Positions 25,455 through 62,273 of a DNA stretch of 64,000 nucleotides are shown here, piece by piece. This stretch comes from Spirochaetota bacterium (GTDB lineage: Bacteria; Spirochaetota; UBA4802; UBA5550). The stretch lies in the NCBI GenBank assembly GCA_050298055.1, contig JBNKTL010000005.1, positions 7,094 through 71,093 of the forward strand. The letters run 5' to 3'. Numbering within the stretch: the first letter of the stretch is position 1; every line of letters begins with the position of its first letter. Both the position numbers and the translations under genes were made by a program. The notes beneath the pieces were generated by a model. That model was not told where the DNA came from, ran no database searches, and was given only the letters and a program-made list of their open reading frames with translations.

Positions 25455-25642
25455 CTGGCGGTATAAATGTTTCCTTATCGTCTTTGTTGCAGATTAAGAA
25501 TCCAAGGAATAAAAGTGTTTTCAAAATAATACAATACATAAAACTAATTAATTGACATAATGATCAAATTAAATAAAGATTATCAACAGAAAAAAATATT
25601 TTTGAAAAGAATATCTTTTCCCGGGCCCTTCGGAGGTATGAG

Positions 25643-38008: not shown

Positions 38009-39826
38009 TCAGGCTTTGATCCTGAAATCACCCACTCTCTTCAGGAGCCCCTCCCGCTCTATCCGGTTCAGGAGGGGAAGCATATATTTTCTTGAGATAT
38101 CAATGGCGTCTCTTGCGTCGGATATGGATATCTTCTCCATGGTGTCAAAAAGGTCCATGATCTTCTCTTTTGAGCTGTTGTAAACATCCCTGTGGTAAAT
38201 GATATTTCCATCCAGGCTGATGAGAAAATCCATCCTGATGAGTTCCTTGATTGTTTTTTTTCGCAGGTCGTCCTTCTCCCTGCTCAGTTCAATCCCTTTT
38301 GTGCTGCTTTCCAGTATTTCATCAAGGAGTTTCCTGCTTCCCTCGGGGAGGGTTTCCTCGGTTATGGAATCTCCCGAAAAGTACCTGCCGTCCTTTTCAA
38401 TGATTGTATGCTCTTTCATTGCCAGGGGCAGGAGCTCCTTGCAGATTTCGGGGGAGATACCCGATGAATCGGATACCTCCCTGAGGTTAAGGCCGACTTT
38501 TTCCTTTATGGATTCCACAAGTGATTTTATTGAATTTTCATAATAGGCCGAGTTAAGAAGAAAGTCCTTTATCTTTATTATTTTTTTCTCTTCTTCCAGT
38601 TTCTTAATAAGCGCATCCATACTCTTTTCTGAATCTGGAAGCATCTTCATAAGGCGCTCCCTTGTGAGACAGTTAAATACGGAGAGATTGAATTCCACAA
38701 TTTCAGGTTTTGTGATGTTTTGTAAAATTGAAAGGTTTTTTCTGACGGCCTTTTTCAACTTTGAATTATAATCACAGAGGACCACTTTTCCCCCGCCGAT
38801 GACCCTGTATCCCCCGGGGTTTGTTATGACAAACGGCTGGCTGGTGGTGAAATACCATTCCCTGTCGATCTTTATCCTTACGAGGTAGATACTCTTTTCT
38901 TCAACCTCTTCTAGTATGATAAGTTTTCCTTTGACATCCGAGGTCCCTACCAGAATTTCAATTCCCAGGTTGTTCTTGATCTCTTTGGACCTGTCAAGTA
39001 TCTGGACCCTTGCCACAAACTCCCTGGACTCTATGAAAAAGTTTTTCTTGAAAAGGATCCATCCCCTTTTGATCTCGTTTACGGAAACACCGGATAGGTT
39101 CAGGGCCGTTCTCTGTGACGGGTTGCCTTCTTCTACTTCATTGAAGTGGGTCTCAATCCGCTTTATTCTCGCGTCCTTTTTTATGGGGAGGATATGCACA
39201 GTATCGTCTTCGTTGAATATGCCGTTCTTCTGTGTCCCGGTTATAACAGTTCCGTGGCCCTTTGACGCGAAAACCCTGTCTATAAAGAGATAGGGCTTGT
39301 CCGTCTTTGTGATCTTTGAGAGCCGGCGGAGGTTTTCTACGATGAGGTTTTTCAAATTCTCAATTCCTTCACCGGTTTTTGTCGATGTGGCGGTAATATC
39401 CGATCCCTCATAGAGGGTCCCGGAAAGCTTCTCCTCAACCTCGGCCTTCACGAATTCCACCATCTCTTCATCTGCGAGATCAACCTTGTTCAGAACAACA
39501 ATCATCCTCTCGATTCCCAGGATTTGTAAAACTCTGAAGTGGTCCTCTGTCTGGGGCATCCAGCCGTCATCTACCGCGATAACAAGAAGTGCAAGATCCA
39601 CACCCCAGGCCCCCACGACCATGTTCCTGATAAAACGCTCATGGCCCGGAACATCGATGATACTCACTGTGCCAAACTTCGGATATACGATACTTGCAAA
39701 ACCGATATCAATGGTCATCTCCCTCTCTTTTTCTTCGGGGAGCCTGTCCGTGTCAATCCGGGTAAGTGAATATATCAGAGAGGTTTTGCCATGGTCGATG
39801 TGACCGGATGTTCCAACAATATACAT
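38009..39826 (-). CDS. selB: Selenocysteine-specific elongation factor
   Basis: GTSGHIDHGKT, DRLPEEKER.MTIDIGFA, DVPGHERF, NKVD; C-terminal SRKY..PLL winged helix. Confidence 0.95.
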   Translation of the reverse strand: MYIVGTSGHIDHGKTSLIYSLTRIDTDRLPEEKEREMTIDIGFASIVYPKFGTVSIIDVPGHERFIRNMVVGAWGVDLALLVIAVDDGWMPQTEDHFRVLQILGIERMIVVLNKVDLADEEMVEFVKAEVEEKLSGTLYEGSDITATSTKTGEGIENLKNLIVENLRRLSKITKTDKPYLFIDRVFASKGHGTVITGTQKNGIFNEDDTVHILPIKKDARIKRIETHFNEVEEGNPSQRTALNLSGVSVNEIKRGWILFKKNFFIESREFVARVQILDRSKEIKNNLGIEILVGTSDVKGKLIILEEVEEKSIYLVRIKIDREWYFTTSQPFVITNPGGYRVIGGGKVVLCDYNSKLKKAVRKNLSILQNITKPEIVEFNLSVFNCLTRERLMKMLPDSEKSMDALIKKLEEEKKIIKIKDFLLNSAYYENSIKSLVESIKEKVGLNLREVSDSSGISPEICKELLPLAMKEHTIIEKDGRYFSGDSITEETLPEGSRKLLDEILESSTKGIELSREKDDLRKKTIKELIRMDFLISLDGNIIYHRDVYNSSKEKIMDLFDTMEKISISDARDAIDISRKYMLPLLNRIEREGLLKRVGDFRIKA

Positions 39827-40484: not shown

Positions 40485-41870
40485 CTACGTAAACCTCTCG
40501 AGAAGTTCGTCAATGACAGATGCAATGTAGGAGATATCATCATCAAAAACAGTCATAAAATCAAGAGTATACCTGTCGTTTATAATAGAACCTACAACCG
40601 GAAGGTTCAGTGAGATCATCCTGTTGTAGAGGTCATCCGGTTTTACTCCGGGAAGAAGTAATTCTACACCGGCGCTTTCAACTTCCAGGGTGGGAAGCGT
40701 ACCGCCCCCGTAAGTGCTCATGGTGCTGACCCTTTTTACCCGGTCCTTTTTCAGGGGATTTTTGATATTCCTCATGAGTCTTGTTATTTTCCCGGAAAGG
40801 GATTTCTTGTCCTGAAAAATTGTGCTCCAGAGGGGAAGGTCCTCATGTTCTCCGTTATCATACAAAAGGAGTGTTTCCTGGATGATATAGTAGGTGATCT
40901 TATCCACCCTGATCATCCGCATGAGGGGATTTTTCCTGAGTCGGACAATCAGCTCCTTTTTCCCGATAATAATGCCCGCCTGGCATCCTCCCAGAAGTTT
41001 GTCTCCGCTGAAACATACCAGGTCCGCGCCCTGGGAAAGTTCCTGACCCACTGTCTGTTCAAAATTTGCCGGAAGTTCGCTGCCGGTAACGAGGTTACCG
41101 CTTCCCAGGTCCCTGACCAGGAGAATATGGTCGGTTTTCAGCTCTGAGAGTTCTTTTAACGATGGAGACCGGGAAAACCCCTCTATTTTATAATTGGACC
41201 GGTGTGCGGAGAATATCATTGATGTGTTCTCTGTTATACTGTTTTTATAATCATCCAGTTCGGTGATATTTGTTGTTCCCGTTTCAACAAGATGTGCCCC
41301 GCTCTGGTTCATGATATCGGGTATCCTGAATCCGCCCCCTATCTGGATCAGTTCACCCCGGGAAACCACTGCTTCTCTCCCCCGGGCAAATTCATTGAGG
41401 ATCAGGAACACCGATGAAGCGTTGTTATTGACGATGAGGGCGTCTTCGGCAGATGTGAGGTTGCAGATAAGTTCCTCTGCGAACCCGCCTCTTTTGCCCC
41501 TTTTCCCAGTTGTGAGCTGGTATTCCAGGTTGCAGTATCCTGAAAGTGCTTCGGCCGCCCGGGAGAAGATCTCCTTCCCGAGGGGTGACCTTCCGAGATT
41601 GGTGTGGATTATGACACCGGTACAGTTTATGACCTTCTGGAGTTTGTGGAGTTTTTTGATTCTGCAGTTTTTCACTATTGCCGGAACAAGCTTCTCTACC
41701 GGTACATCAGCGCCGTCCTGGATTTTTTTCCTGAAAAGGTCAATGACTTTTCGGACGATACCGGTTACAAGCGAATGTCCTATTTCAGGAATAAAAGCAG
41801 CTATTTCATCATTCTGCAGCAGCTTTTCCACCTGGGGGATGTTGCGTAGGTTGTTCTGTGTGTCGTTCAT
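40485..41870 (-). CDS. selA: L-seryl-tRNA(Sec) selenium transferase
   Basis: INCTGVIIHTNLGRSP, VNNNA, SRGELIQIGGGFRIPD, FSGDKLLGG (PLP Lys). Confidence 0.96.
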   Translation of the reverse strand: MNDTQNNLRNIPQVEKLLQNDEIAAFIPEIGHSLVTGIVRKVIDLFRKKIQDGADVPVEKLVPAIVKNCRIKKLHKLQKVINCTGVIIHTNLGRSPLGKEIFSRAAEALSGYCNLEYQLTTGKRGKRGGFAEELICNLTSAEDALIVNNNASSVFLILNEFARGREAVVSRGELIQIGGGFRIPDIMNQSGAHLVETGTTNITELDDYKNSITENTSMIFSAHRSNYKIEGFSRSPSLKELSELKTDHILLVRDLGSGNLVTGSELPANFEQTVGQELSQGADLVCFSGDKLLGGCQAGIIIGKKELIVRLRKNPLMRMIRVDKITYYIIQETLLLYDNGEHEDLPLWSTIFQDKKSLSGKITRLMRNIKNPLKKDRVKRVSTMSTYGGGTLPTLEVESAGVELLLPGVKPDDLYNRMISLNLPVVGSIINDRYTLDFMTVFDDDISYIASVIDELLERFT

Positions 41871-41895: not shown

Positions 41896-41985
41896 CGGAA
41901 GGGGCAGGAATCGAACCTGCCGCTACAATAAATTACAGCCAACGGTTTTGAAGACCGCGGAGACCACCAGATCTCATCCTCTTCC
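41896..41985 (-). tRNA. selC: tRNA-Sec (anticodon UCA), CCA not encoded
   Basis: Minus strand GGAAGAGG AT GAGATC TGGT GGTCTC C GCGGT CTTCAAA ACCGT, long variable arm, GCAGG TTCGATT CCTGC CCCTTCC G; 6-bp D stem; directly upstream of selA. Confidence 0.95.
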
Positions 41986-47495: not shown

Positions 47496-47814
47496 AAGCG
47501 CAATAATTATTTTTTTCGTAACAATACACTTTCTTGCCTTCCCAATTAAGTTTCAAAAGCCCGGAGAGAAGCTGTCTCATACCGGTAAATGGGAAAATAT
47601 CTGTGCCGGAACCGCATTTTCGAAGCTTTACGCGGATGAAAAAAAGAGTTCCGCTCAACCGGAAACAGCTGTAAAAGAAGAAGAGAGCCCGGAGAAGGGA
47701 AAGCTCTTCAAGGTCATGGTTGTTGTTATGGCCATATGGCTGGGACTGGCATTCTACCTCTTCAGGCTCGACAAAAAAATTACCCGATTGGAGAAAGACG
47801 TTAATGAACTTTAA
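47485..47814 (+). CDS. ccmD: CcmD-like protein with N-terminal extension
   Basis: Lies between ccmC and ccmE; C-terminal TM plus YLFRLDKKITRLEK. Confidence 0.6.
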   Translation: MKYRSAIIIFFVTIHFLAFPIKFQKPGEKLSHTGKWENICAGTAFSKLYADEKKSSAQPETAVKEEESPEKGKLFKVMVVVMAIWLGLAFYLFRLDKKITRLEKDVNEL

Positions 47815-48199
47815 GAGAATGGGAATTTTCCTGGGGGCAATGATTCTCCTCATCGTTGCCATATTGTCCCTGAGTGATGATGTAATGACCCCCTATGTTA
47901 CGGTGGCCGAGGCAAAAGAGGCTTCCGGTAAACTGGTGCAGGTTATCGGCAAGCTTGATAAATCCGTACCCCGGAAGCATACGGAGAAGGAGCTCTTCTA
48001 TACAATTATCGATGATAAAAAAGTAACCATGGACGTGGTCTATACAGGGATAAAACCGCAGAACTTTGAGAGGGCCGACCAGATCGTTTCCCGGGGAAAG
48101 TATGATACCGGGAAAAATATCTTCGTGGCAGACAGGATCCTTGTAAAATGTCCGTCCAAGTATAAAGAAGAGCACCCGGAAAGGGTAAAGGGGAATTAA
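47804..48199 (+). CDS. ccmE: Heme chaperone CcmE, CxxxY type
   Basis: TM, V.YTG.KP.NF, A..ILVKCPSKY; start moved to ATG 47804. Confidence 0.9.
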   Translation: MNFKRMGIFLGAMILLIVAILSLSDDVMTPYVTVAEAKEASGKLVQVIGKLDKSVPRKHTEKELFYTIIDDKKVTMDVVYTGIKPQNFERADQIVSRGKYDTGKNIFVADRILVKCPSKYKEEHPERVKGN

Positions 48200-48205
48200 A
48201 CGAAC

Positions 48206-50389
48206 ATGAATTTGGGAAATCTATTACTCTACGCGTCTCTTGCTGCATCCATGGCTGCGGTTTTCTTCTATTTACGGAATACCGGCGGCAGTGAGCCGGG
48301 CATCAATCTCTCAAGAAAGCTCTTTTACACGACAAGTCTCCTCATAGGAGCTGCTGTTATCCTGCTCCTTTTTTATTTTTTAAATAATGATTTCAGGTTC
48401 TCCTATGTGTATGCCTATTCCAACAGGGAACTTGAGTGGTACTACCTGGTGTCCGCCTTCTGGGCGGGCCAGCCCGGGAGTTTCCTCCTCTGGCTTTTTA
48501 TCCTGAACATCTTCGGTATCTTTGTTATCAGGAAACATGATGAAGAAGAAAATATTCTGATGACGGTAATGATACTGGTCCAGGTCGCAATAATTGTTCT
48601 GCTGGTTGTGGACAGTCCCTTTAAATATATCTGGGACCAGTACACGAACCTCAGGCCGGGAGAGTTTCCCCCGGACGGTTCGGGATTAAATCCCCTCCTT
48701 ATTGACCCGTGGATGATTGTCCATCCGCCGGTCCTCTTTGTGGGTTATGCGTCCGCCACAGTCCCCTTCGCCTATACCATTGACGGTCTTATAAGAAAGG
48801 ACTATACCTCGTGGATAAACAGGTCTTATAACTGGGTGATGTTCAGCTTTGTCTCCCTGGGAATCGGAATATTCCTGGGAGGATACTGGTCATACAAGGT
48901 CCTCGGATGGGGCGGTTACTGGGGATGGGACCCGGTGGAGAATTCCTCCCTTGTCCCCTGGCTTGTGGGCCTCATCCTCTTTCACAGCATGCTCCTTTAC
49001 AGAAGAAAGAAAGTCCTGGTAAGAACAACCGTTCTCGCATCACTGTTGTACATTATCTTTGTCTTCTACGGGACCTATCTTACCCGAAGCGGTATTCTCA
49101 AGGACTTTTCGGTCCATTCCTTCGGTGATTCGGTTATCGGGGTTTTCCTGGGTGTTTTTATTCTCCTCCTTATTGCCGTGAGCGGTTTTCTTTATGTTAA
49201 GCGGTTCAGGGACATGAAGCCCCTTTCACAGCCGGTTGACCAGAACCTCTTCAGCTGGGACACTCTCCTGGCCTATGGTCTTATCACGCTGGGGGTCTAT
49301 ACGTTCCTTATCCTGATTGGAACCTCCTGGCCCATCATTACCGGGATAATTTTACCAAAGGCAATTGTTGTTACTGAGAAGTTCTATAACAGCATCTCCA
49401 TACCCTTCGGGATACTCCTGCTGTTCCTTATGGTGTTTTCAACCCTGGCAGTTTCTTCAAAGAAACTCCTGGACATCAAGGATTTTGTTGCCATGGGCGG
49501 GGCAGTTGTCATTGCGGTTTTTTTCAACCTTATGTTTACCGATAAGATTGCGGCATATGCTTTAACCGCTGTGTCCCTGTTTGTAGTCCTTGAATTTCTC
49601 TACGATTTTTCAAAGCTGAAACCTTCGGCGATTCTGGCATCCCGGCTCTCCCACATTGGTCTTGGACTGATGGTTGTCGGTGTTATTACTTCAGGTTTTC
49701 ATTCAACAACCGACCAGAAAAAGTTATTTCTCAACAGGCCTGAAACAGTTGGTGGTGTTAACCTGACCTTTAACGGCTTTACAAGGGAGAAGGAAGCATC
49801 AATGATCTTTACGCTGAGGGACGGTGATACTTCCCGGCGCATTGCCATGAAATATTACATGTCAGAGAAGATGAAGTCCCTCTACAGGGAACCATATATA
49901 GATTACGGTTTTCTCGGAGATACCTACATTATCCCCGAGGATTACACACCGTCGTCAATTGCCGACAATAACGTGGTCCTGGCAAAGGGGCAGCAGCAGA
50001 ATATCGGCGGTGTGGATGTTAAATTTCTTAAATTTGACGCACGGCAGATGAGGGCGGCGGAACCGGTCATCTACGCGGAACTTCTTGTAAACGGGAAACG
50101 GGTCAAACCCGGAATAAAGATTGATAAGCGAAAGGCAAACAGGATCGACGCGAAGGTCCCCGGGACAGACCGGGTCATTTCCCTTCTCAGAATCAATCCC
50201 AGCGATGAGCTGATAGATATATTTGTCAGTCCCGGTAAGGATGTTAAAGTGGTCCCCGACAGTGTCATCGTGAAAGTCTCGCATAAAAGGCTTATCTGGA
50301 TTGTCTGGCTGGGGACAGTGTTAATAACAATTGGCGGCTGCTATGCGATTTACAGACACAGGCCCGCGTCTGCCGCGAAAAATGCCTGA
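48206..50389 (+). CDS. ccmF: Cytochrome c synthetase CcmF
   Basis: WAGQPGS, GLNPLL, HPP, WGGYWGWDPVEN, TRSG..SVHSF. Confidence 0.94.
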   Translation: MNLGNLLLYASLAASMAAVFFYLRNTGGSEPGINLSRKLFYTTSLLIGAAVILLLFYFLNNDFRFSYVYAYSNRELEWYYLVSAFWAGQPGSFLLWLFILNIFGIFVIRKHDEEENILMTVMILVQVAIIVLLVVDSPFKYIWDQYTNLRPGEFPPDGSGLNPLLIDPWMIVHPPVLFVGYASATVPFAYTIDGLIRKDYTSWINRSYNWVMFSFVSLGIGIFLGGYWSYKVLGWGGYWGWDPVENSSLVPWLVGLILFHSMLLYRRKKVLVRTTVLASLLYIIFVFYGTYLTRSGILKDFSVHSFGDSVIGVFLGVFILLLIAVSGFLYVKRFRDMKPLSQPVDQNLFSWDTLLAYGLITLGVYTFLILIGTSWPIITGIILPKAIVVTEKFYNSISIPFGILLLFLMVFSTLAVSSKKLLDIKDFVAMGGAVVIAVFFNLMFTDKIAAYALTAVSLFVVLEFLYDFSKLKPSAILASRLSHIGLGLMVVGVITSGFHSTTDQKKLFLNRPETVGGVNLTFNGFTREKEASMIFTLRDGDTSRRIAMKYYMSEKMKSLYREPYIDYGFLGDTYIIPEDYTPSSIADNNVVLAKGQQQNIGGVDVKFLKFDARQMRAAEPVIYAELLVNGKRVKPGIKIDKRKANRIDAKVPGTDRVISLLRINPSDELIDIFVSPGKDVKVVPDSVIVKVSHKRLIWIVWLGTVLITIGGCYAIYRHRPASAAKNA

Positions 50390-50445
50390 CCTGTTAAGGT
50401 GAGAACAGCCGGGCTGAGAGGGAATAAAGAGGGACGGGACACAGG

Positions 50446-51300
50446 ATGTTTAGTATTTTATTTGCAATAACAATTATACTGTTTTCCACTACATCAGTAT
50501 TGTGCATGATGGCGATTTACTCGGTCAATGAGAGATACCAGTGGATTATCCGGATGCTCATTCCCGCTTCGGTCGTTTCATTTCTTTTCCTCGGATTTAT
50601 GAGGGTCTATTATTCGGAGATAAACACCTTTTTCTATCTCGCATCGGCAATCTGGAGTTATTTCTACCTCTTTTCCCTGGTGCTTCTGCTGGTCCTTGTC
50701 TACCTCTTTTTCTCAAAGTGGAAAACATACTGGAAACCCTTTGTGGCATTGATGTTTCCCTTTGTTACGATCATTTTGCTCATATCAACACCCTTTATCA
50801 ATTCAACGAGAAGGGTCTCAATCGATATAACCGGGAGTATTTTTGCCAACCACCTTCTTCCGGTCCATATATTTTTCACAATTGTGGGAGAGTTGTTTTT
50901 CTTTTTAAGTTTTGTGGGGTCAGTTCTCTACCTGGTCATGGAGTGGCAGTTGAGGCGAAAGGCTTCCATGAGGCTTATCTATAAGCTTCCCACTCTTGAA
51001 ACAATTGAAAAGTTCAACATGTGGGCAATCATACGGTCATTTCTTCTTCTTACTATCGGGCTTTACTTTGGGCTTACCATGGCTTTTACAAATTTCCACA
51101 CACCGTTTATGGGTACGGCCAAGGAAATGCATATTTATTTTTCCTGGATCGTTATCCTGGGGATTTTCTTTCTGAGGAGAATGAAAAAGCTTGTTTCCCA
51201 CAAGGTGAACCTGATAAACGCGGTGCTTTTTCTCATTATTATGTTTCTCTTTATGTTCACGAATATATATATTACCAAGGGTTTTCACAGCTTCCAATAG
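50446..51300 (+). CDS. CcsA/HemX-like membrane protein
   Basis: About 8 TM, LPVHI, LPTLETIE, C-terminal FHSF; immediately upstream of hemA; WWD motif absent. Confidence 0.7.
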   Translation: MFSILFAITIILFSTTSVLCMMAIYSVNERYQWIIRMLIPASVVSFLFLGFMRVYYSEINTFFYLASAIWSYFYLFSLVLLLVLVYLFFSKWKTYWKPFVALMFPFVTIILLISTPFINSTRRVSIDITGSIFANHLLPVHIFFTIVGELFFFLSFVGSVLYLVMEWQLRRKASMRLIYKLPTLETIEKFNMWAIIRSFLLLTIGLYFGLTMAFTNFHTPFMGTAKEMHIYFSWIVILGIFFLRRMKKLVSHKVNLINAVLFLIIMFLFMFTNIYITKGFHSFQ

Positions 51301-51302
51301 AG

Positions 51303-52619
51303 ATGAATAAGGATACAAATAAATCAGAAACTCCGGAAGTGGGTCTTATCGGCATGAGTCATAAAACTGCGCCGGTTGATCTCCGGGAGCAGTTTGCGTT
51401 TACTGACGAAGAGATATCAAAATACATGGACCTCCTGCATGACCAAGGGATTGAAGAGACCGTATGTGTGTCAACATGCAACAGGGTGGAGATCTATTTT
51501 GCTTCCAGCAATGTCCGGGAAGCAGCGGAGCATATCATGAAGCTCCTGGAGGAGAAATCACAGACCAGCAGGAAGAAATTCGAAAAGATCCTCTATAAAA
51601 AGTATTCAAAAGATGCCATTAACCATGCAATGATGGTCTCCGCTTCACTGGATTCCCTGGTTGTGGGAGAGGATGAGATCCTGGGACAGATGAAGGACGC
51701 GTACAGGAAGTCAGCGGGAGAGAAGAGAACCGGGCAGGTCCTCAACAGGCTTTTTCACACTGCTTTTAAAACAGCAAAAAAGATACGGACTGAGACCGAG
51801 ATAGCCCGCAACCCCCTTTCCGTGGCGTATATTGCAACCGAACTGGCAATGAAGGTGTTCGAGGATATCTCCAAGAGGAAGGCCCTGCTCATTGGCGCAG
51901 GTGAGATGGGTGAACTTATTCTCAAGTATCTTACAAAGTACAATATCAGCGAGATATTCCTGGCAAACAGGTCGTTCCACAACGCGGAAAAAATCGCGCA
52001 GGAGATCAACAGGGACGCCCACATAATACCCCTGGAGGACATTACCGATGTGGCCGGCAAGGTTGATATTATCGTCTCATCTGTTTCTGTTCCGGAGTAT
52101 ATATTCAATACCGAAATGGGCAGGGAGGTTACCCGGGAAAGGGGGGACCAGCCCCTCTTTATGATAGACATATCCATACCCAGAAGTCTCGACCCGGGCC
52201 TTTCCGGAATGGACAATATATTTCTCTACAATGTTGATGACCTTCAGACAATTGCGGACGAAAATTTAAAGAACAGGCTGAAAGAAGTTGACCTTGCCCG
52301 GCAGCTTATCGAATCTGATGTGGATGAATTCTTTGCCTGGTATGAGGGACTGGTTGTGGTACCGGCAATTGTCTGTATACAGGAGAAGTTTGATGAGATA
52401 AGGTGCCGGGAACTGGGAAAGTACCGGAAGAGAAAACTGAAACACCTCTCTGACGAAGATTTCAAGCTCATAGAGGACCTGACGAACCAGATCATGACCA
52501 AGACATTGCATAATCCCATCATGTTTTTGAGAAGCTTTAATGCCGCGGACGATGATGAAAAAAAGGCCATAAAAGAGAACGTGAAGATCATTGAAGACCT
52601 CTTCCGGATGAGGGCATAA
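51303..52619 (+). CDS. hemA: Glutamyl-tRNA reductase
   Basis: HKTAPVDLRE, STCNRVE, SLDS.VVGE..ILGQ, GAGEMG; start moved to ATG 51303. Confidence 0.95.
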   Translation: MNKDTNKSETPEVGLIGMSHKTAPVDLREQFAFTDEEISKYMDLLHDQGIEETVCVSTCNRVEIYFASSNVREAAEHIMKLLEEKSQTSRKKFEKILYKKYSKDAINHAMMVSASLDSLVVGEDEILGQMKDAYRKSAGEKRTGQVLNRLFHTAFKTAKKIRTETEIARNPLSVAYIATELAMKVFEDISKRKALLIGAGEMGELILKYLTKYNISEIFLANRSFHNAEKIAQEINRDAHIIPLEDITDVAGKVDIIVSSVSVPEYIFNTEMGREVTRERGDQPLFMIDISIPRSLDPGLSGMDNIFLYNVDDLQTIADENLKNRLKEVDLARQLIESDVDEFFAWYEGLVVVPAIVCIQEKFDEIRCRELGKYRKRKLKHLSDEDFKLIEDLTNQIMTKTLHNPIMFLRSFNAADDDEKKAIKENVKIIEDLFRMRA

Positions 52620-52710
52620 ATTTTCCATTACATCACTTCGTTCCACATGATGACAGGGTCTTCAGCTTGAAACTCGAAACTTGGAACTAAACTTATAACG
52701 GATAGATTTT

Positions 52711-53613
52711 ATGAAAATACGAATTGGAACCAGGGGAAGCCAGCTGGCCCTCTGGCAGGCGGAACATGTAGCGGGCCTTCTCGGAAGAGAGAAAACGGAA
52801 ATTGTTATTATCAAGACTAAGGGTGACCGGATACTCAATGTCTCCTTTGACAAGATGGAGGGGAAGGGCTTCTTTACAAAGGAGATCGAGGCGGCACTTC
52901 TGGAGAACAGGGTTGACCTTGCCGTTCATTCTCTCAAGGACCTTCCCACCGAGAGCGTACCGGAACTGACCGTTGCCGCCATACCTCCCCGGGAAGAGCC
53001 GTGGGATGTCCTCCTTATAAGAAAGGAAGCGCATGAAGAGACAGGTGACTTCCCGGTGAAAAAGGGGGCCGTGGTGGGAACAAGTTCCCTGAGAAGACTG
53101 GCACAGCTGAAGTATAAACGAAACGACCTCACTGTCAAAGCCCTCAGGGGCAACGTGAATACCCGGCTGCGAAAACTTAACGAAGGAGAGTACGATGCCA
53201 TTGTACTGGCCTATGCGGGGATGAAGAGGGTGGACCTTGATACAACCGGCCTGGAAGTTTTTACCATACCCCCGGATATTTTTCTCCCCGCCCCGGCACA
53301 GGGCGCCCTGGGCCTCCAGACGAGGAGGGAGGACCTGCGAACCATCAAGGCTGTAGAGCACCTGAACCATGGTGACACCGTTCGCGCGGTGACCGCGGAA
53401 AGGGCCTTCCTTCACCACTTTGGCGGAGGCTGTCACATCCCCCTGGGATCACTTGCCCTTATTGAGGATGACGAGATATCCATGCAGGGGATCGTGGCAT
53501 CAACCGACGGCAGGACCGCTTTGAAGGACACGGTCCGCGGGAAAGACCCCGGGAGAGCGGGACTTGAACTGGCAAAAAAACTAAAAGAGAAAGGGGCCGA
53601 TAAGCTCCTCTGA
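52711..53613 (+). CDS. hemC: Hydroxymethylbilane synthase
   Basis: GTRGSQLALWQ, AVHSLKD, GTSSLRR, RGNV.TRL, GGC. Confidence 0.96.
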   Translation: MKIRIGTRGSQLALWQAEHVAGLLGREKTEIVIIKTKGDRILNVSFDKMEGKGFFTKEIEAALLENRVDLAVHSLKDLPTESVPELTVAAIPPREEPWDVLLIRKEAHEETGDFPVKKGAVVGTSSLRRLAQLKYKRNDLTVKALRGNVNTRLRKLNEGEYDAIVLAYAGMKRVDLDTTGLEVFTIPPDIFLPAPAQGALGLQTRREDLRTIKAVEHLNHGDTVRAVTAERAFLHHFGGGCHIPLGSLALIEDDEISMQGIVASTDGRTALKDTVRGKDPGRAGLELAKKLKEKGADKLL

Positions 53614-53641
53614 TACGAACAGGGAGAGAGAAGACAGCAGG

Positions 53642-54409
53642 ATGGATAAAAAGCCTCTCTACGGGAAAAAGATAGCCGTAACCAGGAACAGGGAGCAGGC
53701 GGGGTTCCTTGTTGAGATGCTTGCGTCCCGTGGCGCGGATGTCATTGAATTTCCTACCATTGAGGTAAAGCCCCTTGATGACCTTTCCGGCCTTGAAAAA
53801 GCCATAAGCGAGATCGAGAGTTTTCACTGGATCTTTCTAACGTCCCGGAACGCGGTCACGGTTTTTTTTGATAAACTGAAAGAGATGGGTCTTCCCAGGG
53901 AAAGTCTTACCGGTACCGGTTTTGCTGCTGTGGGGCCCGCAACAGCAAGGTGCCTTGAAAGTTACGGGATAAAGCCGGAACTTGTTCCCGATGAATTTGT
54001 CGCCGAAGGACTGGTTGAAGCATCGGCCAGGACCGGTGTCAGCGGGAAGAAGATCCTCCTGCCGTCGGCTGCGGGGGCCCGGGATGTTCTTGCAGGGGGC
54101 CTCAGGGATCTCGGGGCGGACGTGGTGCGGATAAACACGTACCATTCGGTAAAACCGGAATCGGCCCCCGCGAAGAGGGTCAGGGCCGTAAAGGAGGCGG
54201 ATGTCATTACCCTTACCAGCTCCTCAACGGCGGAAAACCTCTTCTCCCTTGTCCCGGATATATCGAGTATCTACGCGTGCATCGGTCCCGCCACGGCGGA
54301 TACCGTGAGAAAACTTGGCCGCGAGCCGCATATTATTGCCGGGGAGTATACACTGGCGGGACTTGTGGATGCCATTGTTGACTACTATTCGGGTATAATT
54401 GAATTGTGA
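53642..54409 (+). CDS. hemD: Uroporphyrinogen-III synthase
   Basis: VTR, TSRNAV, VGPATA, TSSSTA, IGP.TA. Confidence 0.9.
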   Translation: MDKKPLYGKKIAVTRNREQAGFLVEMLASRGADVIEFPTIEVKPLDDLSGLEKAISEIESFHWIFLTSRNAVTVFFDKLKEMGLPRESLTGTGFAAVGPATARCLESYGIKPELVPDEFVAEGLVEASARTGVSGKKILLPSAAGARDVLAGGLRDLGADVVRINTYHSVKPESAPAKRVRAVKEADVITLTSSSTAENLFSLVPDISSIYACIGPATADTVRKLGREPHIIAGEYTLAGLVDAIVDYYSGIIEL

Positions 54410-54476
54410 TTGAAAATTATTAACTCACTTGCAATTATGAATGCCTTTTCAAAATATTTTAAATGGAGGAAACCAG

Positions 54477-55448
54477 ATGGACCTTGTCAACAGACCCCGG
54501 CGATTGAGGAAAAACAGTATTATCAGAGACCTGACCGCGGAGACCATTCTGGATACCCGGAAACTGATATTCCCCTACTTTGTCACCGAAGGAAGCAGGA
54601 TAAGAACACCTATCGAATCCATGCCGGGGATAGACAGGGTCTCCGTGGACAATCTCCTGAAAGACCTGGAGGGCGACCATAAGCGGGGAATTAATACCAT
54701 CCTCCTCTTCGGAATTCCCCACAAAAAGGATGAAACGGGGACCGGGGCGTATTCTGACAGCGGGATCGTCCAGAAAGCGGTGAGGGAGATAAAGAAGAAC
54801 TTTCCCGGTGTCTATGTGATTACCGACGTCTGTCTCTGTGAATTTACCGATCACGGGCACTGCGGAATTGTCAGAGACGGGGACGTTTTAAACGATCCCA
54901 CACTGGAGCTTCTCAGCAGGACCGCGGTCTCCCAGGCCATGGCGGGGGCCGATATGGTTGCGCCCTCTGACATGATGGACGGACGGGTGGGAGCAATACG
55001 GGAGGCCCTGGACGCCAAAGGGCTGACAGATGTGCCCATAATGTCCTATGCCGCCAAGTACAGCTCCGCCTTTTACGGCCCCTTCAGGGACGCCGCGGGG
55101 AGCGCCCCGCAGTTCGGGGACCGGAGAAGCTACCAGATGGATTTCAGGAACGGGATAGAGGCGGAAAAGGAGGTCCTCATGGATATCGATGAGGGGGCCG
55201 ATATTGTCATGGTGAAGCCGGCACTCTCCTACCTTGATATAATCTCCCGGGTCAAAGACATCGTGGACCTGCCGGTCTGCGCCTATAATGTCAGCGGCGA
55301 ATACTCCATGGTAAAGGCCGCGGCGAAGCTGGGCATGGGTGACGAGGAGAGACTCACCGTTGAGATCCTGGGATCGATTTTCCGGGCGGGTGCTGACATG
55401 ATCATAACATACCATGCCCGGGATGTACTGAAGAATGGCTGGTTTTAA
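54477..55448 (+). CDS. hemB: Porphobilinogen synthase (Zn type)
   Basis: RPRRLR, DVCLCEFTDHGHCG, SDMMDGR, MVKPA, YNVSGEY; start at ATG 54477 with GGAGG RBS. Confidence 0.96.
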   Translation: MDLVNRPRRLRKNSIIRDLTAETILDTRKLIFPYFVTEGSRIRTPIESMPGIDRVSVDNLLKDLEGDHKRGINTILLFGIPHKKDETGTGAYSDSGIVQKAVREIKKNFPGVYVITDVCLCEFTDHGHCGIVRDGDVLNDPTLELLSRTAVSQAMAGADMVAPSDMMDGRVGAIREALDAKGLTDVPIMSYAAKYSSAFYGPFRDAAGSAPQFGDRRSYQMDFRNGIEAEKEVLMDIDEGADIVMVKPALSYLDIISRVKDIVDLPVCAYNVSGEYSMVKAAAKLGMGDEERLTVEILGSIFRAGADMIITYHARDVLKNGWF

Positions 55449-55465
55449 GAGAGGAAGAAATTAAA

Positions 55466-55616
55466 CATGAAGTGCACGAAGCAAGAGTTTTATAATGTTA
55501 AGTTTTAAATTTTGAATGTTAAATTAAAGAAATCGTTTTTGATTAGATAATTCAAAATTAAAAATTTAACATTCAACATTATCCGAAACTTCATGTACTT
55601 CGTGTACTTCGTGGTG
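55466..55616. repeat. Nested inverted short-tandem-repeat element (9-mer outside, 7-mer inside)
   Basis: CATGAAGTGCACGAAG ... CTTCATGTACTTCGTGTACTTCGTG flanking TTTTAAA/TTTTGAA/TGTTAAA ... TTCAAAA/TTTAACA/TTCAACA. Confidence 0.65.
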
Positions 55617-55669
55617 AAAAAATCTTAAAAAGAAATTTTTTATATGAAAAAAAACAACCGGAGCAATAA

Positions 55670-56959
55670 ATGAATAGGGAAAAATCAGAAAGGTTATACA
55701 CTGAAGCACTGAATTACATGCCGGCGGGTGTTAACTCCCCTGTCAGGGCTTTCCGGTCCGTGGGGGGCACACCGGTTTTCATGAAGAGCGGCAGCGGATC
55801 ACATCTTGTTGATGAAGACGGCAATGAGTATATTGACTACTGCATGTCGTGGGGACCCATGATCCTGGGGCACGCGGACAGGGACATTATTGAAGCGGTC
55901 AGGGAAGCGGCCCTGAAGGGGACCAGCTTTGGTACACCTAACAGGTATGAGGTTGAACTGTCAAAAGGGGTAACAGGGGCCTTCCCTTCCATGGAGAAGG
56001 TCCGGTTTGTCAATTCGGGAACAGAGGCGACCATGTCGGCCATAAGGCTTGCCCGGGGTTACACCGGCAGGGACAGGATCGTAAAGTTTGACGGCTGTTA
56101 TCACGGCCATGCTGATTTTCTCCTCGTTGCCGCAGGTTCGGGACTTGCGACCTTCGGGGCCCCCGATTCAGCCGGTGTTACCGCGGACAATGCAAAGGAC
56201 ACACTTGTGGTCCCCTATAACGATATTGAAGGCCTGGAAAAACTTCTTGAACAAGAGGGAAAGAATACCGCGGCCATAATCCTTGAGCCTGTTCCCTGTA
56301 ACTATGGTCTCATCCTTCCCAACAGAGGTTACCTGGAAAAACTGAGGGAACTCTGTGACAGATATGGGATCGTTCTGATATTCGATGAGGTCATAAACGG
56401 TTTCCGGCTCGCTTTGGGAGGTGCCCAGGAATACTATGGTGTAAAGGCTGACCTGACGACCCTGGGGAAGATAATCGGTGGCGGCCTTCCCGTTGGCGCC
56501 TACGGGGGAAAAAAGGAGATCATGGACAAAATTGCCCCTGACGGTCCCGTGTACCAGGCAGGAACACTCTCGGGAAATCCTCTTGCAATGACGGCGGGAA
56601 TTGTCACACTGAAAAAACTTGGCGGCGGAAATATTTATCCTGAACTGAAGAAGAAGGGTGAGTCTCTGAAGAAAAAGCTGGAACCTGTTTTGGACCGGTA
56701 CAGGGGGAAGGTGCTCTACCAGGAGCTGGAATCAATATTTTCGCTCTATTTTACTGACCGGGAGGTCATTACCTCCGTGGACCAGGTGAGAGGGTGTGAT
56801 ATGAAGAAGTTCGGTGAGTTCCATTCCCGGATGCTTTCCCGGGGGATCTATCTCTCACCTTCAGGATATGAAGTGGGCTTTCTCTCAACTGTGCATACCG
56901 AGGAAGATCTTGACAGGACAGCAGTTGCAGTTGAGGAATCGTTAAAGGCTATTTTCTGA
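55670..56959 (+). CDS. hemL: Glutamate-1-semialdehyde 2,1-aminomutase
   Basis: GVNSPVRAF, SGTEATM, GCYHGH, FDEV, GKIIGGGLP, YQAGTLSGNP. Confidence 0.96.
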   Translation: MNREKSERLYTEALNYMPAGVNSPVRAFRSVGGTPVFMKSGSGSHLVDEDGNEYIDYCMSWGPMILGHADRDIIEAVREAALKGTSFGTPNRYEVELSKGVTGAFPSMEKVRFVNSGTEATMSAIRLARGYTGRDRIVKFDGCYHGHADFLLVAAGSGLATFGAPDSAGVTADNAKDTLVVPYNDIEGLEKLLEQEGKNTAAIILEPVPCNYGLILPNRGYLEKLRELCDRYGIVLIFDEVINGFRLALGGAQEYYGVKADLTTLGKIIGGGLPVGAYGGKKEIMDKIAPDGPVYQAGTLSGNPLAMTAGIVTLKKLGGGNIYPELKKKGESLKKKLEPVLDRYRGKVLYQELESIFSLYFTDREVITSVDQVRGCDMKKFGEFHSRMLSRGIYLSPSGYEVGFLSTVHTEEDLDRTAVAVEESLKAIF

Positions 56960-57031
56960 TTTTTATTTATGGTTTTTAACTTAATTCAATGTAAAAGATA
57001 TTTTAAACATTTTAATAAAAGGAGTTTCAAT

Positions 57032-57520
57032 GTGAAAATAAGAAGTTGTATAATAGCAGTGATGGCAGTGACCTCGATGGCAGTTTTCGGATGCAAGGAT
57101 AAAGCTCCGGACGGCAACCAGGGACTTCCCAAGGGTCATCCTGCTCTTGATATGCAGTCGCATCCCAAAATTGATACAAAATCAGAAATAAAAATTGCTC
57201 CGGGATCAATAGAGAAGGCCTCCGGAGGATACACTGTTTCGGAAATCTTTGGGAAAAAAGCCGCTCTGAACGGCAAGAGCGTAAAGGTCAGGGGGACGGT
57301 CACTAAATTCAATGCTAATATTATGAGCAGAAACTGGCTGCATCTGCAGGATGGAACCGGTGGTCCCGGTGAAAACGACCTGACGGTCACAACAATCAGC
57401 AAGGCCGCAGTAGGCCAGAGAGTCCTCATTGAAGGAAAGCTTACTCTTGATAAGGACTTTGGTGCCGGCTATAAGTATCCCGTTATCGTGGAAGGAGCTA
57501 CCGTCACAGTAGAAAAGTAG
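57032..57520 (+). CDS. NrfJ-related OB-fold lipoprotein
   Basis: GTG start with AGGAG RBS; VFGC lipobox; LPKGHP, NWLHLQDGTG, KDFGAGYKY. Confidence 0.65.
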   Translation: MKIRSCIIAVMAVTSMAVFGCKDKAPDGNQGLPKGHPALDMQSHPKIDTKSEIKIAPGSIEKASGGYTVSEIFGKKAALNGKSVKVRGTVTKFNANIMSRNWLHLQDGTGGPGENDLTVTTISKAAVGQRVLIEGKLTLDKDFGAGYKYPVIVEGATVTVEK

Positions 57521-57681: not shown

Positions 57682-58128
57682 ATGAAACTTAAACTTAAAA
57701 ATTTATCAATAGGTAAAATTAACGGAGTCTTAATTACTGCAGTTCTTTCGATCCTCGTTGTCTGGTCCATTCAGAAAGGAGTCCTGAGTTCAGCAAGCAG
57801 TGCGGAAGTGAAGAAACATGCATCGGTTTATTTTCCCGTTAAGTCCCACGATTTTGGAAAGGTTACCGGCGCTAAAACAGTCAGTCATAAATTTATTTTT
57901 TATAACAGGGGAGGAGATATTCTTCTGATAAAGAAGATCACCGCGGGATGAGGATGCACTGCTGCTCTTTTAACAGAAAAGAGCATACCTGCCGGGGGCA
58001 GAGGAGAACTTAAGATAAGCCTGAATACAAAAGGGCACAGGGGCAGGATTTCAAGGACTATAAAAGTCTATACCAATGATCCGGAGAAACCTGTGATACG
58101 TATCAGTATATCGGCCCTGTCGGGATAA
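57682..58128 (+). CDS. Probable selenoprotein, DUF1573-like Ig fold (148 aa, Sec at TGA 57949-57951)
   Basis: HDFGKV..HKFIFYNRG..LLIKKITAG-TGA-GCTAA..IPAGGRGELKI..T.G..GRISRTIKVYTNDP; in-frame continuation matches the DUF1573 xCGCT pattern. Confidence 0.85.
57963..57985 (+). promoter_or_regulatory. Candidate bacterial SECIS hairpin
   Basis: TGCTCTTTT-AACAG-AAAAGAGCA, perfect 9-bp stem starting 11 nt after the TGA. Confidence 0.65.
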
Positions 58129-58180
58129 TCCAACAAACTGAATTTTAAAATTTCCCTTGTTATTTATAGGATCAAAGAGA

Positions 58181-59053
58181 ATGGATATACAACTGAAGGG
58201 TCCAAAACTCTCCAGGTTTAAAATAAAAACCCTTATCTATTTCAAAGCGCTGGCTGTCTTTTTGTTGACATTTCTCATTCTTTTTCTGCTCATAAAAGGG
58301 ATTCGAAGCTTCTCAGAGTATCGAGAGTGGAAACACGCAGTTAAAACTATCCCAGAAAAAGAGATCAGAAAACTTGAAATGGTAAAGAAACAGTTCAGCT
58401 ATGAACAGGTGATCCAGACATGGTATGTCCCCCCGTATAAGGAATGGTTGAAACCGATTAACTGGCTGATCTATTCGGAAAACTGCATATTATGTGGAAA
58501 ACTCAATGTCATGAAGTTTGTGGGAATGATCCCGGGGGAGTGGACAGTTAAGGATTTCAAAAAAAAACTGGAAGGATTTGATTTTGCAAATGAATGGGCA
58601 CTTCACACGGGAAAGTATCCCATAACTGACAGGATTTTGTCTGATGTAAGCAGAAGGCTAACCGGGAACAGGTCCATTAAGTACAGGTGGTATTCCATTA
58701 AAAACCTGGATGAACTCATTTACCTGGCAAGGAGAGGGCACCATGTCTTTATCTATACGCAGGTCTGGCTGGGGCCGTCAAAGAAATACCCGAAAGCAGT
58801 AAAGTATCTTGGAAAGAACTATTCACATGCGTGCACAATTACCGGAATTAAATCCTATGATCCCGTGGAGGATATCATCGAGTTTTCCGTAAATGAGACC
58901 CTGCCCGCCACGGAATTCACATACACACCGGTATACAGTAAGCTTAAAAAAAAGGATGGATGTAATCTCTTTGACAGACAGAGTGTTCCCTATATAATTC
59001 CCTCGGGAGATTTAGCACGATCAGGATATGTTATCAGGGTTGAGGATGAGTAA
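58181..59053 (+). CDS. Membrane-anchored protein, possible papain-like/C39-type Cys peptidase
   Basis: TM anchor; SENCILC ... YSHACTITG ... VNET in Cys-His-Asn order; start uncertain (58157 or 58181). Confidence 0.45.
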   Translation: MDIQLKGPKLSRFKIKTLIYFKALAVFLLTFLILFLLIKGIRSFSEYREWKHAVKTIPEKEIRKLEMVKKQFSYEQVIQTWYVPPYKEWLKPINWLIYSENCILCGKLNVMKFVGMIPGEWTVKDFKKKLEGFDFANEWALHTGKYPITDRILSDVSRRLTGNRSIKYRWYSIKNLDELIYLARRGHHVFIYTQVWLGPSKKYPKAVKYLGKNYSHACTITGIKSYDPVEDIIEFSVNETLPATEFTYTPVYSKLKKKDGCNLFDRQSVPYIIPSGDLARSGYVIRVEDE

Positions 59054-59073
59054 AGACCCATAAAGGAGAAGTA

Positions 59074-60624
59074 ATGAGAAATCTGTTAATTATATTTACC
59101 GGTGTTATACTCTGTCTTGCTGCCTGCAAGAAAGGAGGAACAACTGCCGGGACTGCCGATTATAAAGATGCCACAGAAGCGGATCTGCCGCTGACACTAA
59201 TTACCGAGACAAAGGTCATAAAGGGATATAATGAGAAGTCAACCCCCGATAAATATGACAGGGTCGGATATAACAGGTATTATCTCAAGGGCCAGTCCAA
59301 CAGCAGGATGCCCATACTGATCATCGTATCAGGTTATGTTGTGGATACCACATGGTTTAACAGGATGGCCAGGGACCTTGTTGCGCGAAAGAATGTTGAG
59401 GTCTGGACCATTAACAGGAGGGAGTCCCTCGTAGAGAACAGGGCGGCCCTTGATAAGGATATTAACGACTTCATGGCACATCCGGGAAAGAGGAAACAGC
59501 TTATCAGAAAGATGAACAGAACATCCAACTACCTCAAGGGGAAGGATGAGTATATCAGGAACTGGGGCTTCACTGTCTTTATGAATGATATTAAGGCTGT
59601 TGTTAACGAAGCAAAAAAACTGAGCCGCAACATATTCCTGGGAGGATGGTCTGACGGTGTGGAATACTGCATGATATATGCAAACTACAGGTTCACAAGC
59701 GGTTTCGGTTCCGGGGACCTCAGGGGACTGGTTTTCCTGGATGAAAATCCCGAGTGGGGAAATCTCTCGGGGAAGGAAGAGGAACTTAAGAAAAAGATAG
59801 AGAGGCAGATAAAACTAATGGAGGGAGGACATCTCTACATGAACTACTATCCCTCCCTTGCCGTGCATACCCTTGCCATGGAACTTGCTTCCAGGGCCCC
59901 CGGCGGGAAAAGTCCCCTGGCAGAGTATTTTAAACTCCCTGAAGCTGTAATGAAATCCGGGATAACCAACCGGGGACTCATCGGATGGCTCTATGATAAG
60001 GATGTTACAAATTACGGTAAGAACGTCAGGGGGGGCTTTGCGTATCTTTTAAGATCGGGTGACCTTGAGGTTCCTGAAATGCAGGACAATAACGGCCATG
60101 AAGAAAAGAGTGAAGAGAAAACTGACGGACCTGATAAAAATGAAAAAAACCCCGGAAAAGAGAAGAGTGAAAATACCGGCGGTCTCTGCAGGTGGAAATC
60201 GTTCAAAGAAACGGGGGAAGTTACGGATATTAACCTGATGATCAGCAGGTACAGGTCTACGGGAAATTACTGGGAATATTTTTATCCGCGAAAAGTACTC
60301 CTGGATTATTTCCAGATGGGCCTGTGTGACTTTGAGTGTCCCGGTTTCAATGTTTTTGCCAATAAGGAGAACAGTCTGCCTGTTTACTATATTTTAACCG
60401 GAACGAACAATGTGGGTAAAGGTATCCCTTCGGGACTGAAATGGTATTTGGAAAAAAGCAGTATCAAGATTGAACAGGTTGTTTTTAACAGGCTTTATGA
60501 TTACGCCCATGGGGATATCTATTTCGCAGAGAATGCTCCGGCAAAGATTTACCGGCCTCTCTATGAGTGGCTGCTAAAAACTTCCGGTCTAAAGAATCCG
60601 GATAAAAAAGAGAGGAATAAATAA
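59074..60624 (+). CDS. Alpha/beta-hydrolase fold lipoprotein
   Basis: LAAC lipobox; GWSDG nucleophile elbow; C-terminal YAHGD; AGGAG RBS. Confidence 0.75.
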   Translation: MRNLLIIFTGVILCLAACKKGGTTAGTADYKDATEADLPLTLITETKVIKGYNEKSTPDKYDRVGYNRYYLKGQSNSRMPILIIVSGYVVDTTWFNRMARDLVARKNVEVWTINRRESLVENRAALDKDINDFMAHPGKRKQLIRKMNRTSNYLKGKDEYIRNWGFTVFMNDIKAVVNEAKKLSRNIFLGGWSDGVEYCMIYANYRFTSGFGSGDLRGLVFLDENPEWGNLSGKEEELKKKIERQIKLMEGGHLYMNYYPSLAVHTLAMELASRAPGGKSPLAEYFKLPEAVMKSGITNRGLIGWLYDKDVTNYGKNVRGGFAYLLRSGDLEVPEMQDNNGHEEKSEEKTDGPDKNEKNPGKEKSENTGGLCRWKSFKETGEVTDINLMISRYRSTGNYWEYFYPRKVLLDYFQMGLCDFECPGFNVFANKENSLPVYYILTGTNNVGKGIPSGLKWYLEKSSIKIEQVVFNRLYDYAHGDIYFAENAPAKIYRPLYEWLLKTSGLKNPDKKERNK

Positions 60625-61490: not shown

Positions 61491-62273
61491 TCAGAACCTC
61501 AGTTTTACCCCTGTATTAATTATCCCTTTGTTTTCACTTCCCTCTATTCCGACATTTTTACCAGCTTCGAGGATATCATTGATTCTGCTTTTATTCTTCA
61601 AGTAGCTGTATCCGTAATATCCGGCCGCAGGATAACCGATTGCTGCTGATACGATGCATAAAATAACGATAACAGTACTTATCAATCCAAACTGGAGGAC
61701 CGCATAAAAAAGATATCCGATACCCAGGGAGATTGTGCTGCTTGCAGAGTAAAACATGAAGTTATACCTGTTAGAGAGGATGTTCTCCTTTTCAAAGTAT
61801 TTATATTTTATGAGGTATTCCGGGGGAAGAAAGTCAACATCTTCTTTTGTTCCGGTATCGAGCTGGAAACTTCCGGTAATGGGATAGTTCATATAACTGA
61901 AATATCGTGAATTAACCGGTTTGTTGTTAAACATTCTCTCAATTGTATAGGTATAACCGCTGTTTTCAAGAGTCTGAGGAAGCCGGACGGAATAAAATTC
62001 CCCGTAATAGAGTTTCGGTGCTATGATGAATTTCTGGGGAGATGCCTGCCTATTCTCCTTTTTCTTCAGGGTGATTCTGTATTTTGTCTCTTTCCCATCT
62101 TTATATCCGTAAATATCTTTCCATATAAAGGATGGGCGATTGTTGCTAATACTGTCACAGGGATAAAGCAACGGTTTAACGGGGCTCCTCGATTCTGCAT
62201 AAATAGAGGAATAGATGAAGATACATGAAACCGTTATAGATGTGTATATTCGATATCTTATCATCTGGATCAA
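61491..62273 (-). CDS. Hypothetical exported/membrane protein
   Basis: 260 aa ORF; signal-like N-terminus, two C-terminal hydrophobic segments. Confidence 0.6.
   Translation of the reverse strand: MIQMIRYRIYTSITVSCIFIYSSIYAESRSPVKPLLYPCDSISNNRPSFIWKDIYGYKDGKETKYRITLKKKENRQASPQKFIIAPKLYYGEFYSVRLPQTLENSGYTYTIERMFNNKPVNSRYFSYMNYPITGSFQLDTGTKEDVDFLPPEYLIKYKYFEKENILSNRYNFMFYSASSTISLGIGYLFYAVLQFGLISTVIVILCIVSAAIGYPAAGYYGYSYLKNKSRINDILEAGKNVGIEGSENKGIINTGVKLRF

Follow-up and report, generated by a model that had tools for sequence, protein, structure and literature searches.

A predicted DUF1573/OS_HP2-family selenoprotein gene from a Spirochaetota bacterium with a likely non-canonical, tandem-hairpin SECIS

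Analysis of a 64,000-nt stretch of Spirochaetota DNA (referred to below as the window) revealed a reading frame at 57682..58128 on the plus strand that is very likely a selenoprotein gene of a known family, encoding a DUF1573/OS_HP2-type product of 148 amino acid residues in which an in-frame TGA (57949..57951) specifies the predicted Sec90 within the context A-G-U-G-C-T. This UGA is conserved across relatives and, on comparative grounds, is very likely decoded as selenocysteine. The gene is also likely to carry a non-canonical tandem SECIS, and its recoding is probably directed by two successive hairpins, of which the variable first one would serve as a spacer, and the conserved second one would present a G-first triloop for binding by SelB.

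The frame opens with an ATG at 57682, runs for 89 codons up to the TGA, and continues for a further 58 open codons to a TAA at 58126..58128; an earlier note on this DNA had described the 89-aa ORF, its extension and the downstream peptide, and its coordinates and peptide all match. At the local composition, an open stretch of 58 codons is expected by chance with a frequency of about 2%, and the main support for the predicted read-through, which is strong, comes from homology rather than from the length of the open frame. The profile PF07610 (DUF1573) spans the TGA, covering residues 51-138 with an E-value of 1.5e-21 and a score of 76.7 bits against a gathering cut-off of 26.1, which places the product within DUF1573. 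Each half of the product also matches the NCBIfam model NF041425 separately, at model positions 2-38 and 41-95. The profile search of the read-through protein advised in the earlier note, together with an alignment in which the TGA falls on the first Cys of CGCT in the Cys homologues, bears out its proposal of a UGA-recoded DUF1573 protein. Its expectation that standard callers would truncate the gene was likewise borne out, as the gene calls of a public collection end at the TGA in all three cases looked up (89-, 84- and 65-aa forms of the target gene and two relatives). A protein search with the target returned 74 proteins, mostly two-domain Cys forms together with the truncated 89-aa version of the target itself; a search of this type cannot reveal TGA forms. 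Promoter and terminator scans around the gene gave matches at chance level only.

It is very improbable that the UGA is a genuine stop, a lesion in a pseudogene, an assembly error, or a Trp, Cys or Gly codon of a changed code. The public calls ending at the TGA agree with such a reading, which is opposed by the recurrence of the TGA in two phyla at one and the same Cys column and by the intact domain on both sides of it. The TGA is not a sequencing error, the objection that the earlier note had itself raised: it is covered by contigs of four out of four runs with no differing letter, all four belonging to one study, with run X1 possibly being the source of this DNA and runs X3 and X4 being shallow. 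A changed genetic code is excluded, because UGA is a common stop in this genome (TGA ends 850 of 2686 long coding-like ORFs), tRNA-Sec is the sole UCA tRNA among 52 tRNAs, and prfB, encoding RF2, is present.

The machinery for selenocysteine insertion is encoded on the minus strand of the same window, between 38009 and 41985, where all three genes named in the earlier note were located: selB (38009..39826; 605 aa, with a SelB winged-helix domain) and selA (40485..41870), both recognized by profile match, and selC, the tRNA-Sec(UCA) (41896..41985), recognized by tRNA/RNA family scan. The selD gene, which itself carries an in-frame TGA, is found on contig C39 of the same genome. The host therefore possesses selA, selB, selC and selD, as expected for a Sec-using host of the OS_HP2/DUF1573 family, and the nearest taxon-named matches of its SelB are from Spirochaetota. 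A scan against Rfam found only tRNA-Sec in the window and matched no RNA family, SECIS included, at the locus itself.

A six-frame search of 61 related genomes detected the gene in 46 and its TGA form in 43 of them; among the 54 matched places, 46 contained exactly one TGA and eight contained none. The occurrence of the TGA in other genomes alongside Cys homologues agrees with the definition of the OS_HP2/DUF1573 family. After de-duplication, the same-phylum set comprised 49 TGA forms and 12 Cys forms, leaving out four (G014, G017, G018 and G039:C3) of 24 places that had come without a locus, and lower-scoring matches. In all 49 distinct TGA forms, the TGA aligned to residue 90 and was followed by 58-101 open codons. 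A second set was compiled from the phylum of a Desulfococcaceae record, in which 74 of 201 genomes were matched; the best-scoring places yielded 22 TGA and 12 Cys forms of Desulfobacterota, with L117 being dropped by the alignment filter. Thereby the homologue search suggested in the earlier note, for TGA aligned to Cys with downstream hairpins, returned 49 and 22 TGA forms in addition to Cys homologues. The Cys homologues retain the CxC motif, and two same-phylum genes, L030 (G006) and L048 (G026), read U-G-I(-T), having kept the UGA and a G-loop and lost the partner Cys. SelB was matched in all eight TGA-form genomes tested and was also present in eight other genomes with no match to the DUF1573 target protein; four distant Cys-form genomes gave no match with this SelB query. 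One further DUF1573/OS_HP2 match (G524:C192:20763-21023) contains two in-frame TGAs and may represent either a form with two Sec residues or a broken gene.

The consensus bacterial SECIS has a loop of 3-9 nt with G at the first or second position, located 16-37 nt from the UGA, and a folding energy of -7.5 kcal/mol or lower (PMC13188914). Hairpin 1 of the target gene (57963..57985, plus strand), identified by folding and in homologues and proposed as a spacer or pause element, starts 11 nt past the TGA and consists of 9 bp closed by the loop AACAG, which lies 20 nt from the UGA and has no G at its first two positions. The earlier note had correctly reported this perfect 9-bp helix but had missed a second hairpin, at 57989..58001. 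The minimum free energy of hairpin 1 is -9.1 kcal/mol. Its stability is unremarkable when compared with dinucleotide shuffles (z from -0.48 to -1.25), and only three of 1000 synonymous recodings of the same peptide were as stable; the hairpin was better than such recodings in 44 of the 49 same-phylum TGA forms versus none of 13 Cys forms. It is kept in 47 of 49 same-phylum and in 22 of 22 Desulfobacterota TGA forms, with a variable loop sequence (41 different loops in 49 genes) and an early loop G in ten of the 49 genes by minimum free energy. At one fixed register the pairing amounts to 62.6%, a low value because the register shifts between genes. RNAalifold did not recover hairpin 1, pairing the UGA region instead, and recovered hairpin 2 in part.

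Hairpin 2 (57989..58001, plus strand; CUGCC-GGG-GGCAG), also identified by folding and in homologues, is proposed to provide the SelB-binding loop. It has 5 bp, begins 3 nt past hairpin 1 and exposes the G-first triloop GGG 42 nt from the UGA. In the target itself this hairpin is weak: its -5.5 kcal/mol misses the -7.5 rule, and it does not stand out from synonymous recodings, of which 311 in 1000 were as stable; in relatives the stem lengthens to about 57986-58005, and -7.5 kcal/mol or lower is reached in 38 of the 49 same-phylum TGA forms. The loop reads GGN in all 49 of them, the third base being C in 29, A in 13, U in five and G in two. The codons of the stem are near-fixed, with Ala encoded by GCC in 43 of 47 cases and Gly by GGC in 46 of 48, against a background elsewhere in the same genes of 89 of 210 and 95 of 314, respectively. 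At the silent third base of the Pro codon, the pair formed with the opposite stem base covaries (U-A in 30 genes, C-G in 15, G-C in one, broken in three). It is the only pair of hairpin 2 that covaries strongly, most pairs being invariant and lying within the conserved P-A-G-G peptide, and the genes are related rather than independent.

Taken as a two-helix structure, 74.3% of the cells pair versus 46.7-59.1% with slid partners, a contrast inflated by the derivation of the structure from the same sequences. In an ensemble test, both hairpins folded in 45 of the 49 TGA forms from the same phylum and in 20 of the 22 from Desulfobacterota, whereas the Cys forms gave 2 of 12 and 1 of 12, respectively (3 of 24 together), and GC3-matched synonymous recodings gave both hairpins in 14 and 18% of cases. 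In the two Desulfobacterota misses, L099 and L110, the search pattern had picked the second Gly, and G-loops at 38-39 nt are present in both. With our own rendering of the published rules, as distinct from bSECISearch itself, a canonical element (G-loop hairpin at 16-37 nt) was detected in 5 of 49 same-phylum and 1 of 22 Desulfobacterota TGA forms, and a G-loop hairpin at 38-44 nt in 38 of 49 and 17 of 22, respectively; among the Cys forms, a relaxed energy cut also brought up a distal G-loop hairpin in 4 of 12 and 6 of 12.

In three of the 49 genes (L030, L048 and L052), the G-triloop is found on hairpin 1, where it reads GGN and lies 21 nt from the UGA. The hairpin 2 cores of these genes retain 2/4, 3/4 and 0/4 pairs, respectively, and all three fail the hairpin 2 fold test; five other genes have 3/4 of the hairpin 2 core without the swap. 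Since L030 and L048 are sister genes of one genus and L052 belongs to another family, the swap to hairpin 1 probably represents two events, although a quick tree built from 82 columns is compatible with a single origin. In L052 a longer fold stands in competition with the local G-loop hairpin (-1.0). At the protein level, I/V-P-A-G-G in the same-phylum Sec forms takes the place of x-x-P-G in most Cys forms, an amino-acid change for which the RNA stem may be responsible. The exact hairpin 2 motif, searched 33-48 nt behind other TGAs of the genome, revealed no other credible selenogene, so that the feature shared between selenogenes is the layout and not the sequence.

The genome contains at least 11 predicted selenogenes, the target included; the others were found by coding-score and Cys-paralogue screens and named by motif, paralogue or NCBIfam match. 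Nine of the ten others carry G-first loops, triloops for the most part, at a distance of 17-27 nt: SelD, two FdhA-like, two MvhD-like, MsrA, thioredoxin-like, YeeE-like and DUF166, with the FdhA and YeeE labels resting on motif reading rather than on family matches. With these G-first loops at canonical distance, the lineage of the target follows the G rule, and the earlier suggestion of a lineage-specific SECIS without an early G, based on the AACAG loop, is not supported. SelD is encoded on C39, and the sites C5:95355, C69:2685, C4:73025, C65:5130 and C42:23235 correspond, in unassigned order, to the two MvhD-like genes, MsrA, the YeeE-like gene (G-Y-U-P-G) and DUF166/DfsP. Read-through candidates on C45, C6, C43 and C47 were rejected, one of them joining phosphoglucomutase and acylphosphatase genes and three having no family match.

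The tenth selenogene, peroxiredoxin/AhpC-like and with a signal-like leader and the motif F-T-S-T-U, is located on the minus strand of G000:C22 (TGA 26037; L129, L142). Its first hairpin is long and G-less; 2 nt further on stands an 8-bp hairpin that displays a GUU triloop at 60 nt from the UGA. One ortholog (L143, G009) keeps both hairpins with compensatory changes, and in a more distant peroxiredoxin with TGA there is a single hairpin, which bears the same GUU triloop at 17 nt; no ortholog beyond this one was found in a protein search of 81 genomes, a pattern search of 122 genomes and a metagenome scan. Directly downstream, with its TGA at 25578 on the same strand (L129), is the thioredoxin-like selenogene (U-P-I-C), which has a hydrophobic leader, and the two could possibly form an exported Prx/Trx pair. 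The same contig also harbors the two formate-dehydrogenase-like selenogenes, with TGAs at 27433 (plus) and 7521 (minus), each with a canonical GUC-loop hairpin at 19 nt and a second GCGG-loop hairpin at 40 nt; one base pair differs compensatorily between the two.

The tandem reading can be expressed as a sequence of steps. When UGA occupies the A site, about 11 nt of mRNA lie covered in the entry tunnel of the ribosome (PMC4513850), and since hairpin 1 starts 11 nt after the UGA, it would fold at the mRNA entrance. Its folding would loop out 23 nt, so that hairpin 2's GGN loop, 42 nt off in sequence, would come about as near to the entrance as a canonical loop at 17-27 nt, where SelB would bind the G-first triloop; hairpin 1 may also slow the ribosome. 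With such a layout, the codons right after Sec would escape the loop constraint, which would fall instead on the Gly of the P-x-G turn, the codon of which always begins with GG. This division of labour draws support from the natural swap in three genes and from the Prx-like gene with the same layout. We regard the assignment of the SelB site to hairpin 2 with good, though not high, confidence, and the need for hairpin 1 as a spacer or pause with confidence only a little better than even.

Two other selenoprotein readings divide these roles differently. Hairpin 1 might itself be the functional SECIS, recognized by a SelB that does not need the loop G, with hairpin 2 a by-product of the P-A-G-G peptide. 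Its start 11 nt after the UGA, as in the upper stem of E. coli (PMC8659212), and its advantage over synonymous recodings in TGA forms but not in Cys forms agree with this. We nevertheless consider it improbable, given that its loop sequence is not conserved, that the SelB of the same genome serves nine genes with G-first loops, that the silent sites of hairpin 2 are constrained and covarying, and that G-triloops turn up on hairpin 1 where hairpin 2 is weakened. It is also unlikely that hairpin 2 alone is the SECIS, working at 39-42 nt, with hairpin 1 acting as a separate pause or enhancer and not as a spacer. Binding of SelB to a SECIS can precede the arrival of the UGA, at a time when the element is still far from the ribosome (PMC4513850), and the range of 16-37 nt is a statistical rule for 'most' elements (PMC13188914), both of which would accommodate a distant loop; yet hairpin 1 is kept as consistently as hairpin 2, and in the Prx-like gene a longer first hairpin accompanies a more distant G-loop, as predicted for a spacer, although this comparison comprises two genes only.

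Turning to the protein, the hydrophobic N-terminal segment (approximately residues 10-34; 57709..57783, plus strand) has a Kyte-Doolittle 19-residue mean of up to 1.97, in agreement with the signal peptide or membrane anchor claimed earlier, and the target copy has no lipoprotein Cys. A hydrophobic leader is found in all 49 forms, with a nearby Cys in 22 according to a crude lipobox pattern, and the protein is predicted to be exported or membrane-anchored; it may sit anchored outside the cytoplasmic membrane, a weaker inference. The DUF1573 domain (residues 51-138; 57832..58095, plus strand) is recognized by PF07610, AlphaFold2 and Foldseek as an Ig-like, PapD/ASH-type beta-sandwich. The AlphaFold2 model, built with Cys at position 90 from an 18-row alignment, shows a confident beta-sandwich over residues 41-148 (block pLDDT 89-98 from residue 41 on) and positions U90 in a loop between strands 81-88 and 92-96. 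The best Foldseek match is PDB 2qsv from Porphyromonas gingivalis (E-value 3.6e-07, rmsd 1.8, 23% identity), followed by PapD/ASH-type Ig domains (HYDIN, and the Ig domains of VesB/VesC), and a sequence search against PDB returned no match. These structural matches indicate no function for the U-G-C loop, nor do the available portions of the literature naming DUF1573 give one for the domain. Chances appear evenly balanced that the exposed selenolate of U90, backed by C92, is a redox centre or soft-metal ligand. The U-G-I genes L030 and L048, which keep U and lose the second Cys, speak for the selenolate as the working group rather than for a Se-S bridge of purely structural role.

No functional partner was evident from the gene neighbourhoods of the same-order loci, the window and the Desulfobacterota loci. 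Across 75 loci, a divergent Sua5/YrdC gene lies upstream in 19 and a glycogen-branching-type gene downstream in 28; in most same-order relatives, including L134-L141, the selenogene is situated between divergent Sua5/YrdC and glycogen-branching-enzyme-like genes. The Desulfobacterota neighbourhoods differ again from those of the same-order relatives and of the window. In the window, CcmA-, B-, C-, E- and F-like genes are followed on the plus strand by the haem biosynthesis genes hemA, C, D, B and L (45561-56959), and this haem/cytochrome c maturation cluster, which ends about 700 nt upstream of 57682, is absent beside the gene of most relatives. Between hemL and the target (56969-57520, plus strand) is a gene for a small predicted lipoprotein with a leader ending in G-C and an L-P-K-G-H-P motif, for which no Pfam or NCBIfam match was obtained. 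A 1896-aa ORF and three further ORFs, in the regions 29633-35323 (plus), 58157-60624 (plus) and 61491-62273 (minus), likewise have no Pfam match.

The earlier note had left open whether the selenoprotein family was new; it is an already catalogued predicted selenoprotein, OS_HP2 or 'DUF1573 domain-containing protein, UGC'. OS_HP2 was predicted from two TGA-containing ORFs (Zhang and Gladyshev, 2007; PMC1976440), and reviews of 2022 and 2026 list a DUF1573 selenoprotein with PF07610 and the motif UGC (PMC9312934, PMC13188914), the equation of OS_HP2 with that DUF1573 row resting on NF041425 and a shared citation. A figure legend in PMC1976440 announces SECIS drawings for five of the six new families, OS_HP2 being left out, and the accessible part of one BSepDB supplement holds no DUF1573 or OS_HP2 entry. 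Against NF041425, the 'OS_HP2 family (seleno)protein' of NCBIfam, the target scores 87.2 bits, below the cut-off of 100 bits, so that by profile score it is placed outside the curated membership, as a sister clade of the NF041425 subfamily within the DUF1573-UGC family of the literature. Its closest relative, L007, scores 94.4 and one Desulfobacterota form 130.5, and none of 301 genomes of the target's phylum reached the cut-off in a six-frame search.

On the protein side the result is an annotation fix for a Spirochaetota clade shortened in public calls and missed by the curated model. The RNA signal matters more, as it offers one concrete, mutable architecture for a class of non-consensus SECIS, represented by 71 variants occurring in nature, by a swap and by a second family. 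Atypical bacterial SECIS elements are acknowledged in reviews and tools (PMC13188914, PMC12013277, PMC13326102); a subset of bacterial selenogenes fails the consensus model and distinct classes must exist (PMC13188914), and canonical elements are reported for only 87.4% of BSepDB entries (PMC13326102). No description of a two-hairpin bacterial SECIS was found in the literature searched, which left most subscription papers, including the 2005 bSECISearch paper, outside its reach. Comparative evidence tips slightly in favour of a distinct SECIS class, whose spacer hairpin, sequence-free and placed at the mRNA entrance of the ribosome, would hand a distal G-triloop (39-60 nt) over to SelB. Such a class would be family-wide in DUF1573/OS_HP2 of two phyla, would recur in an unrelated peroxiredoxin selenogene, could revert to one hairpin, and could cover part of the approximately 13% of catalogued bacterial selenogenes without a canonical SECIS. 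If true, it would show how a bacterium frees the codons following Sec from the G-loop constraint, and would improve selenogene prediction and provide a design rule for recombinant Sec insertion.

Compared with known systems, the target shares with OS_HP2/DUF1573 the DUF1573 domain, Sec at the first Cys of CGC giving U-G-C, the hydrophobic N-terminus and the Sec-using host. As a single-domain form it has 58 residues downstream of U; the range is 58-101 across the 49 forms of the same phylum, against 154-290 across the 22 from Desulfobacterota. Like the SECIS of E. coli fdhF, in which the upper stem begins 11 nt from the UGA and G23 and U24 are the key loop bases (PMC8659212), it has a helix beginning 11 nt after the UGA. 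With the consensus SECIS of the bSECISearch model (PMC13188914) it has in common in-frame hairpins just 3' of the UGA and a small, G-first apical loop, and both hairpins fall within the size rule of a 3-9-nt loop and a 4-16-bp stem. In contrast to that consensus, no single hairpin combines an early loop G with a distance of 16-37 nt: the target splits these features over two hairpins, the one at canonical distance (20 nt) lacking the early G, and the other presenting its G-loop at 42 nt, as compared with 39 nt in most Desulfobacterota forms and 60 nt in the Prx-like gene.
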